Positions 46,998 through 48,829 of a stretch of 50,509 bases of DNA are shown here, one piece after another. Origin of the DNA: Escherichia phage PhiR11_1_star. The stretch lies in the sequence record PV340548.1, one strand, 5' to 3'. Numbering within the stretch: the stretch's first letter is position 1; the number at the start of each line of letters is the position of its first letter. A model generated the notes under the pieces. That model made no database searches. It had not been told where the DNA came from and saw nothing but the letters and a program-made list of their open reading frames with translations. The translations under genes were made by a program, and so were the position numbers.

Positions 46998-47002
46998 GTT
47001 TC
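46998..47002. repeat. 5-bp target-site duplication GTTTC of IS2 (second copy at 48334-48338)
   Basis: GTTTC immediately flanks both IS2 ends. Confidence 0.85.
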
Positions 47003-47013
47003 TGGATTTGCCC

Positions 47014-47919
47014 CTATATTTCCAGACACCTGTTATCACTTAACCCATTACTGGCTTGCTGCCGTAGATATTCCCGTGGCGAGCGATAACCCAGTGCACT
47101 ATGCGGATGCCATTCGTTATAATGCTCGAACGCCTCTGCAAGGTTCTTTGCTGCCGTTAACCCGTCTGGTTTGGGCATGACACTGATGTAGTCACGCTTT
47201 ATCGTTTTCACGAAGCTCTCTGCTATGCCGTTACTCTCCGGACTCCGCACCGCCGTGCTCTTCGGTTCAAGCCCCAACATCCGGGCAAACTGCCGTGTTT
47301 CATTAGCCCGGTAGCATGAACCATTATCCGTCAGCCACTCTACTGGAGACGCCGGAAGCTCGTTGCCGAAGCGGCGTTCCACCGCTCCCAGCATGACGTC
47401 CTGTACTGTTTCACTGTTGAAGCCGCCCGTAGTGACCGCCCAGTGCAGTGCCTCACGGTCACAGCAGTCCAGCGCGAACGTGACTCGCAGTTTTTCTCCG
47501 TTATCACAGCGGAACTCGAACCCGTCAGAGCACCATCGCTGATTACTTTCTTTCACAGCCACTCTGCCTGTATGTGCCCGTTTCGATGGCGGTACAGCAG
47601 GTTTTCGCTCAAGCAACAGCGCATTCTGGCGCATGATCCGGTAAACACGTTTGGCATTGATCGCAGGCATACCATCAAGTTCTGCCTGTCTGCGAAGCAG
47701 CGCCCATACCCGACGATAACCATACGTGGGCAGCTCTCCGATAACATGGTGTATACGGAGAAGCACATCCGTATCATCAGTGTGACGACTGCGGCGGCCA
47801 TCCATCCAGTCATCGGTTCGTCTGAGAATGACGTGCAACTGCGCACGCGACACCCGGAGACAACGGCTGACTAAGCTTACTCCCCATCCCCGGGCAATAA
47901 GGGCGCGTGCGCTATCCAC
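47014..47919 (-). CDS. insD: IS2 transposase OrfB (InsD)
   Basis: 301-aa ORF with DDE-type transposase sequence, recognised as IS2 InsD. Confidence 0.9.
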
Positions 47920-48242
47920 TTTTTTGCCCGTCCATATTCAACGGCTTCTTTGAGGAGTTCATTTTCCATCGTTTTCTTGCCGAGCAGGCGCTGGAGTTCT
48001 TTAATCTGCTTCATGGCGGCAGCAAGTTCAGAGGCAGGAACAACCTGTTCTCCGGCGGCGACAGCAGTAAGACTTCCTTCCTGGTATTGCTTACGCCAGA
48101 GAAATAACTGGCTGGCTGCTACACCATGTTGCCGGGCAACGAGGGAGACCGTCATCCCTGGTTCAAAGCTCTGCTGAACAATTGCGATCTTTTCCTGTGT
48201 GGTACGCCGTCTGCGTTTCTCCGGTCCTAAGACATCAATCAT
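47877..48242 (-). CDS. insC: IS2 OrfA (InsC) HTH protein
   Basis: [56 protein letters not shown], 121 aa, recognised as IS2 InsC. Confidence 0.9.
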
Positions 48243-48829
48243 CTGCTCTCCAATGACTAGTCTAAAAACTAGTATTAAGACTATCACTTAAATAAGTGAT
48301 ATTGGTTGTCTGGTGATTCAGGGGGCCAGTCTAGTTTCTCTCTCATCATGCCAGACTTGATAATTATTTAAACATCAGCGCTGCTATTTATATTTCACAC
48401 CTTTTTGATCCGAAACGACACTGCCATCGGTAAGCCCGGATGATACATTCTGAAAATTCATCAGAAAAATTTACATCACGCTTTACTCCTGACGTATATC
48501 AGCACTAACGTGCCATTGCGCACGCGCTAGCTATTTAGTAGCGCGTTTCGGCGAAAAGAGATTCGGTAGTCAATGACTATATTTCGCTCATAACAGACAT
48601 TCACTACAGTTGTGGCAGAAAGGTATGCATGCTGGGTGTGGGGAAGTCGTGAAAGAAAAGAAGACTGCTTCGCCGTTTGTCGTCACTGCTATCTTCTTAT
48701 TGCTTATGAAGGTCGTAGTGGGGCACACAAAGCTTTGCACTGGATTGCAAGGCGTTGTGCTTCTCTTGAGTGCGACATGTTTTTATGTCAAAAAATTAGC
48801 GCAAGAAGACAAAAAATCACCTTGCGCTA

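Follow-up and report, generated by a model that had tools for sequence, protein, structure and literature searches.

An IS2 insertion upstream of an FRG-domain candidate defence gene in an Escherichia phage

What becomes of a candidate defence gene when a complete insertion sequence comes to lie directly in front of it? The window, by which we mean the whole 50,509-nucleotide stretch of phage DNA analysed here, raises this question at the start of a gene for an FRG-domain protein, which begins 29 bp from an IS2 element. The first-pass annotation of this DNA proposed that IS2 separates the gene from its presumed native promoter, and that the insertion may silence the cassette or place it under IS2 read-through or a hybrid promoter. 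Here we ask whether the insertion is real and where it came from, what it took away from the FRG gene, and which of these outcomes the sequence favours.

A complete IS2 lies 29 bp from the FRG start codon

Positions 47003-48333 of the window, read on the minus strand, are a complete IS2 of 1331 bp. Sequence reading, end extraction and a repeat finder agree in placing the tip of the left inverted repeat (IRL) at 48333 and that of the right inverted repeat (IRR) at 47003. The terminal inverted repeats are imperfect: IRL (42 bp, 48292-48333, minus strand) starts TAGACTGGCCCC... and IRR (41 bp according to PMC3299598, 47003-47043, minus strand) ends ...GGGGCAAATCCA. Read along the minus strand, the element opens with TAGACTGGCCCCCTGAATCACC... 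and closes with ...GGAAATATAGGGGCAAATCCA, and its ends match the published form, 5'-TAGACTGG... for IRL and ...AAATCCA-3' for IRR (PMC3299598). The sequence GTTTC stands on both sides of the element, at 46998-47002, where it adjoins IRR and the FRG gene, and, by sequence reading, at 48334-48338, where it adjoins IRL. The two copies are 1336 bp apart, that is 1331 + 5, and the repeat finder recovered this direct repeat as well as the terminal inverted repeats.

Both genes of the element are intact. The 121-aa product of orfA (insC; 47877-48242, minus strand) has the Pfam domain HTH_Tnp_1, and the 301-aa product of orfB (insD; 47014-47919, minus strand) has the Pfam rve integrase-core domain. 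The two frames overlap in the -1 relation expected of IS2, and the overlap holds an intact programmed -1 frameshift site, A6G (AAAAAAG), at 47919-47925 on the minus strand (IS2 position 409), a motif described for this element (PMC3219604). The curated NCBIfam models 'IS2 repressor TnpA' and 'IS2 transposase TnpB' are matched at 276 bits (cut-off 229) and 713 bits (cut-off 597), respectively. With its full length, correct ends, intact frames and scores above the cut-offs, the element is the complete IS2 that the first-pass annotation had named. It also lies where that annotation placed it, 29 bp from the FRG gene and co-directional with it, the IRR tip being at 47003 and the FRG ATG at 46973, both on the minus strand. 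Such elements are common in the species: of 5426 complete E. coli genomes searched by megablast, 4724 contain IS2 matches.

The FRG gene belongs to a putative defence cassette next to att

The gene behind IS2 (45603-46973, minus strand; true start ATG 46973) encodes a 456-aa FRG-domain protein and is a PADLOC PDC-S15 candidate defence gene. The protein matches Pfam PF08867 at 4.6e-22 (79.2 bits against a gathering cut-off of 25) and the PDC-S15 models at 7.3e-99, and it aligns over its full length with PHROG 4962, residues 1-453 falling on profile positions 1-455. Phage Tritos and the P2-like phage P2_2H1 encode homologues (41-44% identity), in P2_2H1 close to the right genome end; a search of the PDB returned no sequence match. 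The Aravind group assigns FRG to the ART superfamily and predicts it to be an NADase-type effector (PMC9503650). We found no experimental report of anti-phage activity of PDC-S15/FRG genes in the literature searched.

Two further minus-strand genes follow. The first (44409-45533) encodes 374 aa, or 350 aa in the PGAP annotation, and its product has no match in Pfam, PADLOC, PHROGs or NCBIfam; it includes a stretch, ...PDYRIILKDRRQIFVEVKNF..., that may be reminiscent of a PD-(D/E)xK nuclease motif. The second (43117-43932) encodes 271 aa and is HEPN-like, its RiboL-PSP HEPN match of 26.4 bits lying below the Pfam cut-off of 28.4. Compared with the corresponding prophage of E. coli FDAARGOS_1249, this gene shows one SNP (43523) and, near its 3' end, a T8/T7 homopolymer indel at 43200, giving 271 aa against 293; the 271-aa form is also found in strain CREC-629. 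Together the FRG gene, the 374-aa gene and the HEPN-like gene look like a small defence island, to judge by these matches and their grouping. Their place is the lambda b region, the interval separating the tail fibres from att, and they adjoin att; the order in the IS2-free prophage is tail-fibre genes, HEPN-like gene, 350/374-aa gene, FRG gene, attR and ybhB.

Twenty-five genomes carry the same three genes in other surroundings, together with about 406 bp upstream of the FRG ATG, at 98.4% identity. In one of them, L002 (NZ_CP024815.1, 2720-6982), the neighbours are a tail-fibre-assembly fragment, a recombinase fragment and YfjI/DUF3987 genes, and homology to the window stops at window position ~48717.

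The uninterrupted site is preserved in E. coli genomes

To recover the site as it would have stood before the insertion, we brought the flanks together around one GTTTC and looked for the resulting 1205-bp sequence in complete E. coli genomes. Four genomes contain it as one unbroken match at 100% identity, which supplies the comparison with IS2-free relatives that the first-pass annotation had suggested as a check; 25 further genomes match its first 984 bp at 98.4-98.5%. Because the site with a single GTTTC occurs uninterrupted in E. coli genomes, the duplication cannot be put down to chance, and the 5-bp target duplication that had been read from the two flanks of IS2 is borne out. The IS2 at 47003-48333 is confirmed as a real transposition, its 5-bp duplication verified against the empty site.

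The occupied IS2/FRG junction was absent from every one of the 5,426 complete E. coli genomes and had no match in IMG/VR or in metagenome contigs. The empty junction is present in two IMG/VR contigs. Outside the window, the occupied junction was found only in GenBank PV340547.1 (Escherichia phage PhiR11_1; listed host K-12 MG1655). This specific insertion is therefore already in the public record, with the transposase genes annotated there.

The empty allele also bears on where the FRG gene starts. There, the reading frame of the FRG gene is closed by a TGA 12 codons ahead of the ATG, and no start codon separates the two. IS2 has replaced this stop, so an ORF finder extends the frame back to a GTG at 47039, inside IRR, and adds 22 spurious codons (46974-47039, minus strand). 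The first-pass annotation had rightly called this IS-derived N-terminal extension an artefact of the junction. An exact look-up of the extended 478-aa frame in public assemblies found none on record, and ATG 46973 is agreed on by PGAP in the IS2-free genomes, by the annotation of PV340547.1 and by the PHROG 4962 profile. The junction accounts for the spurious 478-aa call.

The window is PhiR11_1 joined across attP, with an extra IS1

PV340547.1 is a deposited complete phage genome of 49,016 bp. Window positions 769-48975 correspond to its positions 810-49016, and window positions 48996-49814 to its positions 1-819, with no mismatch in either segment. Between the two segments lies the lambda att core, GCTTTTTTATACTAA (48977-48991), with P and P' arms on its flanks, that is, in the attP configuration. 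The window ends as it begins, its last 695 bp being identical to its first 695 bp, and so represents a unit of 49,814 bp, circularly permuted or in tandem.

Several other features of the window deserve mention in their own right. An IS1 (window 1-768 and 49815-50509) with a 10-bp duplication, GACCCCTCCT, breaks a lambda-type integrase gene into fragments at 769-~1150 and 49065-49814 (minus strand); it is missing from PV340547.1 and differs from K-12 IS1A, the only K-12 IS1 copy compared, at 4 of 768 positions. From its disrupted int, this variant should be unable to integrate or excise by itself. A side tail-fibre gene contains two adjacent 168-bp repeats (39396-39563 and 39585-39752) that are 87.5% identical. 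A porin gene (15967-17109, minus strand; OmpD in the annotation of PV340547.1) separates Q from the lysis genes; it and the Bor and SieB genes annotated in that record belong to the usual lambdoid accessory (moron) genes. A literature search for 'PhiR11' returned unrelated matches only.

The insertion is recent and probably predates propagation in K-12

We compared the IS2 copy with others to ask where it came from. It agrees at 1331 of 1331 positions with a copy that interrupts papF in E. coli FDAARGOS_1249, and this variant is the one carried by ExPEC-like strains such as that isolate. The genome of FDAARGOS_1249 also contains this prophage, integrated beside ybhB-bioA at the lambda attachment site, and its IS2 site is empty; over the flanking 7,990 bp, the prophage and the window are 99.96% identical. 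The FRG gene and the 374-aa gene are 100% identical to the IS2-free allele. Since the element is identical to the FDAARGOS_1249 copy and the neighbouring genes are identical to the IS2-free allele, the insertion is recent.

The listed host of PhiR11_1 made K-12 a candidate source, which the comparison disfavours: against K-12 IS2A, the one K-12 copy compared, the element has 25 differences in its first 1241 positions (~98% identity) and more in the last 90, as against none from the FDAARGOS_1249 copy. By these comparisons the insertion probably arose in the natural host lineage and not during propagation in K-12. The papF copy has the duplication TAAAC in the orientation of the element, and the copy described here has GAAAC; the AAAC common to both may reflect a target preference or may be coincidence.

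The insertion leaves no room for a promoter of the gene's own

Having established the insertion, we turned to what remains upstream of the FRG gene. The 29 bp between IRR and the FRG ATG read GAAACTTAACTTATGCGAGGATCGCAAGT and include a Shine-Dalgarno sequence, GAGGA, read from the sequence at 46982-46986 on the minus strand, 8 nt upstream of the ATG (-13 to -9). Because the gap is only 29 bp and the Shine-Dalgarno sequence lies inside it, a sigma-70 promoter that yields an mRNA containing that site cannot fit between IRR and the ATG. On the far side of IS2, the upstream region is bounded by a hairpin terminator at 48789-48831 (minus strand), which we take, by its likeness to the lambda sequence, to be the counterpart of lambda tI/sib. 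With this terminator as the upstream limit, any promoter of the FRG gene's own must lie in 48339-48788, now beyond IS2. The geometry accordingly supports the proposal that IS2 stands between the gene and its native promoter.

Consensus scans found neither a minus-strand promoter nor a terminator in the occupied or the empty site. Under a position weight matrix (PWM) that is a rough approximation, several candidates emerged (-295, -159 and -63); the best scores were 9.45, 9.25 and 7.9 bits, and no candidate beats shuffled sequence, for which the mean best score was 10.7 bits. The candidate nearest the gene, TTTAAA-16-TGgCATGAT with an extended -10 (48345-48372, minus strand), is the one at 7.9 bits, below the shuffled background. 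Six nucleotides separate its -10 from the duplicated GAAAC, which puts IS2 near its predicted start, and the candidate now faces IRL. On RNA folding, neither the junction nor the native leader gave a supported structure (z-scores 0.15, 0.77 and -0.98), and an Rfam search of 46800-49100 gave a chance-level match only.

We propose that a recent copy-out/paste-in transposition placed IS2 in the leader or promoter-proximal region of the FRG gene, and that a natural E. coli host lineage with many copies of this IS2 variant was the setting in which the b region of the lambda-like temperate phage PhiR11_1 received it. Everything upstream of -29 is displaced by 1336 bp, leaving the FRG gene with its ribosome-binding site but without its own promoter.

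FRG expression is probably reduced, with some read-through from IS2

As 29 bp cannot hold a promoter, the FRG gene can be transcribed only from IS2 or through it, in the sense direction. Three sources of such transcripts can be envisaged. The first would be the OrfA-repressed promoter at IRL, PIRL, which is described as weak and bound by OrfA (PMC3299598). The second would be the displaced native promoter, whose transcripts would enter through IRL. The third, available on circular or tandem phage DNA, would be N-antiterminated transcripts from pL that cross attP, tI and IS2, as lambda biology suggests; N is annotated in PV340547.1. Within the element, no intrinsic terminator was predicted on either strand between 46700 and 48700, and the sense transcript had more G than C in 18 of 23 sampled windows, with no sustained C-rich, rut-like stretch. 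With neither a predicted terminator nor a C-rich stretch in the sense transcript, strong polarity is not predicted, and read-through that reaches the FRG gene from PIRL or from the displaced native promoter is plausible.

We therefore consider that the FRG gene is probably down-regulated, partially or almost completely, with residual read-through, and not activated; the direction and the size of this change are predictions from the arrangement of the junction. Rho-dependent termination within the rarely translated orfB is possible despite its G-rich composition, and would turn attenuation into silencing.

A different outcome, which we regard as unlikely, is that the insertion is a near-neutral passenger. 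The FRG cassette would then be driven natively, for the most part, by pL and N across attP, as the lambda ea genes are, and IS2 would change little, because N-antiterminated polymerase ignores terminators and IS polarity and the element sits in non-essential DNA. The cassette does have the position and orientation of lambda ea59/ea31/ea47, just beyond attP and the tI/sib-like site; no significant promoter of its own was found, the phage encodes N, and PhiR11_1 with its IS2 was deposited as a complete phage genome of 49,016 bp. A genome of this size is within the lambda packaging range. Against this account, genes of the PDC-S15 type in prophage hotspots are expected to act in lysogens, in which pL is cut off from the b region, and the ~406 bp upstream of the FRG ATG moves with the cassette into another context, as in L002, which hints at a regulatory region of its own. 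On this evidence we continue to favour reduced expression.

A hybrid promoter at the junction is predicted to be weak

Could IS2 instead have supplied a promoter? When IS2 forms a minicircle, the junction promoter Pjunc combines an outward -35 in IRR with a -10 made up of the first bases of IRL (PMC3299598, PMC3219604). It needs a spacer of exactly 17 bp, that is, 16 bp of IRR and a 1-bp junction spacer (PMC3299598, PMC3219604). From this geometry, the outward-facing -35 in the window would be TGGAAA at 47019-47024 (minus strand), positions 17-22 from the IRR tip; the identity of the hexamer is deduced from the geometry in two papers of one group, with the first 6 bases of IRL taken as the -10. 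Hybrid promoters and activation of neighbouring genes by IS2 have been documented at ampC, acrEF and neoR (PMC9330008).

By the same route IS2 could activate the FRG gene: this -35 would pair with a -10-like hexamer, GAAACT or AAACTT, of the duplicated target, and transcription starting ~14-17 nt upstream of the ATG would make FRG expression constitutive or raise it, as at ampC. In favour of activation, an outward -35 in IRR is documented, and the element is oriented as required, with IRR toward the FRG gene. GAAACT, at 16-bp spacing, matches the consensus at 3 of 6 positions and keeps the two most conserved ones (A2 and T6), and a start ~7 nt downstream of it would retain the Shine-Dalgarno sequence. 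The flank nevertheless offers no good -10 at about 17 bp: AAACTT, at the mandatory 17-bp spacing, matches at 2 of 6 positions. Under the rough PWM, TGGAAA-16-GAAACT scores 4.7 bits and TGGAAA-17-AAACTT 3.8, as against 9.2 for authentic Pjunc (TGGAAA-17-TAGACT) and 10.7 for an ampC-type -10 in a reconstructed TGGAAA-17-TACAAT model. Of all possible insertion points in the window, 12% do as well as 4.7 bits or better, and the consensus scan showed no minus-strand promoter at the junction. By these scores the hybrid promoter is weak, with no sign of a strong or selected one, and activation seems distinctly improbable.

Discussion

The questions posed at the outset can be answered at different levels of confidence. 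The IS2 in front of the FRG gene is real, complete and recent, and it has taken away the space for a promoter of the gene's own; the gene would now depend on transcription that starts in IS2 or passes through it. We regard the insertion as an ordinary insertion polymorphism, in which a well-understood element occupies a well-understood kind of position.

It would be of wider interest had the insertion been selected, either because it silences or re-wires a phage FRG defence or abortive-infection gene of the predicted ART/NADase type, or because it makes a reversible, OrfA-controlled switch. Silencing or re-wiring could have opened a new host such as K-12 to the phage, for propagation or lysogeny, and a switch would couple FRG expression to the OrfA-controlled promoter of IS2. 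Nothing we see in the sequence argues for selection, however, and we hold either version to be very doubtful. That the element is not truly at 47003-48333, but was put there by misassembly or chimerism, is almost certainly wrong: IS elements are a frequent source of misassembly and the window itself has a 695-bp terminal overlap consisting of IS1, but the 5-bp duplication is perfect and of a sequence that is single in the empty-site genomes, the element is full-length with correct ends, and the identical junction stands in PV340547.1, a different sequence version without the IS1.

Beyond bookkeeping, the importance of the insertion is small. Anti-phage tests of PhiR11_1 or its cassette should take into account that expression of the FRG candidate defence gene probably differs from that in IS2-free relatives. 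A demonstration that the insertion turns a defence gene on or off would make it a neat case of phage-borne immunity under IS control. The locus is also an instance of a temperate phage that carries host IS elements between strains, with an IS2 from the original host lineage and an extra IS1 in the window.

Comparison with known systems

The closest record is PV340547.1, which is 100% identical to the window over 48,207 + 819 bp, IS2/FRG junction included. There, IS2 is annotated as InsC/InsD and the FRG gene product as a hypothetical protein, with the same start as here. The window differs in being joined across attP and in carrying the additional IS1 in int. The FRG protein resembles PDC-S15/FRG proteins by both HMM measures, the Pfam gathering score and the PDC-S15 models.

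The element shares with IS2 of the IS3 family, represented by IS2A of K-12 MG1655, its length of 1331 bp, the IRL and IRR termini, the A6G-linked orfA/orfB pair and the 5-bp duplication; 3 of the 25 positions that differ from IS2A fall in IRL.

The classical polar IS2 insertions, in the gal operon and in lambda, owe their polarity to Rho, and lambda N relieves it. The insertion described here resembles them in that IS2 is placed between promoter and gene. It differs in that the transposase genes are co-directional with the FRG gene, and in the absence of a predicted terminator or C-rich stretch.

The other precedent is the IS2 hybrid promoter at ampC (Jaurin and Normark, 1983, as summarised in PMC9330008). 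Here too IRR faces the downstream gene, and its outward -35 could pair with a flanking -10. Going by that summary, ampC obtained a good native -10 at the optimal 17 bp, whereas the hexamers that flank IS2 at the FRG gene match at 2-3 of 6 positions.
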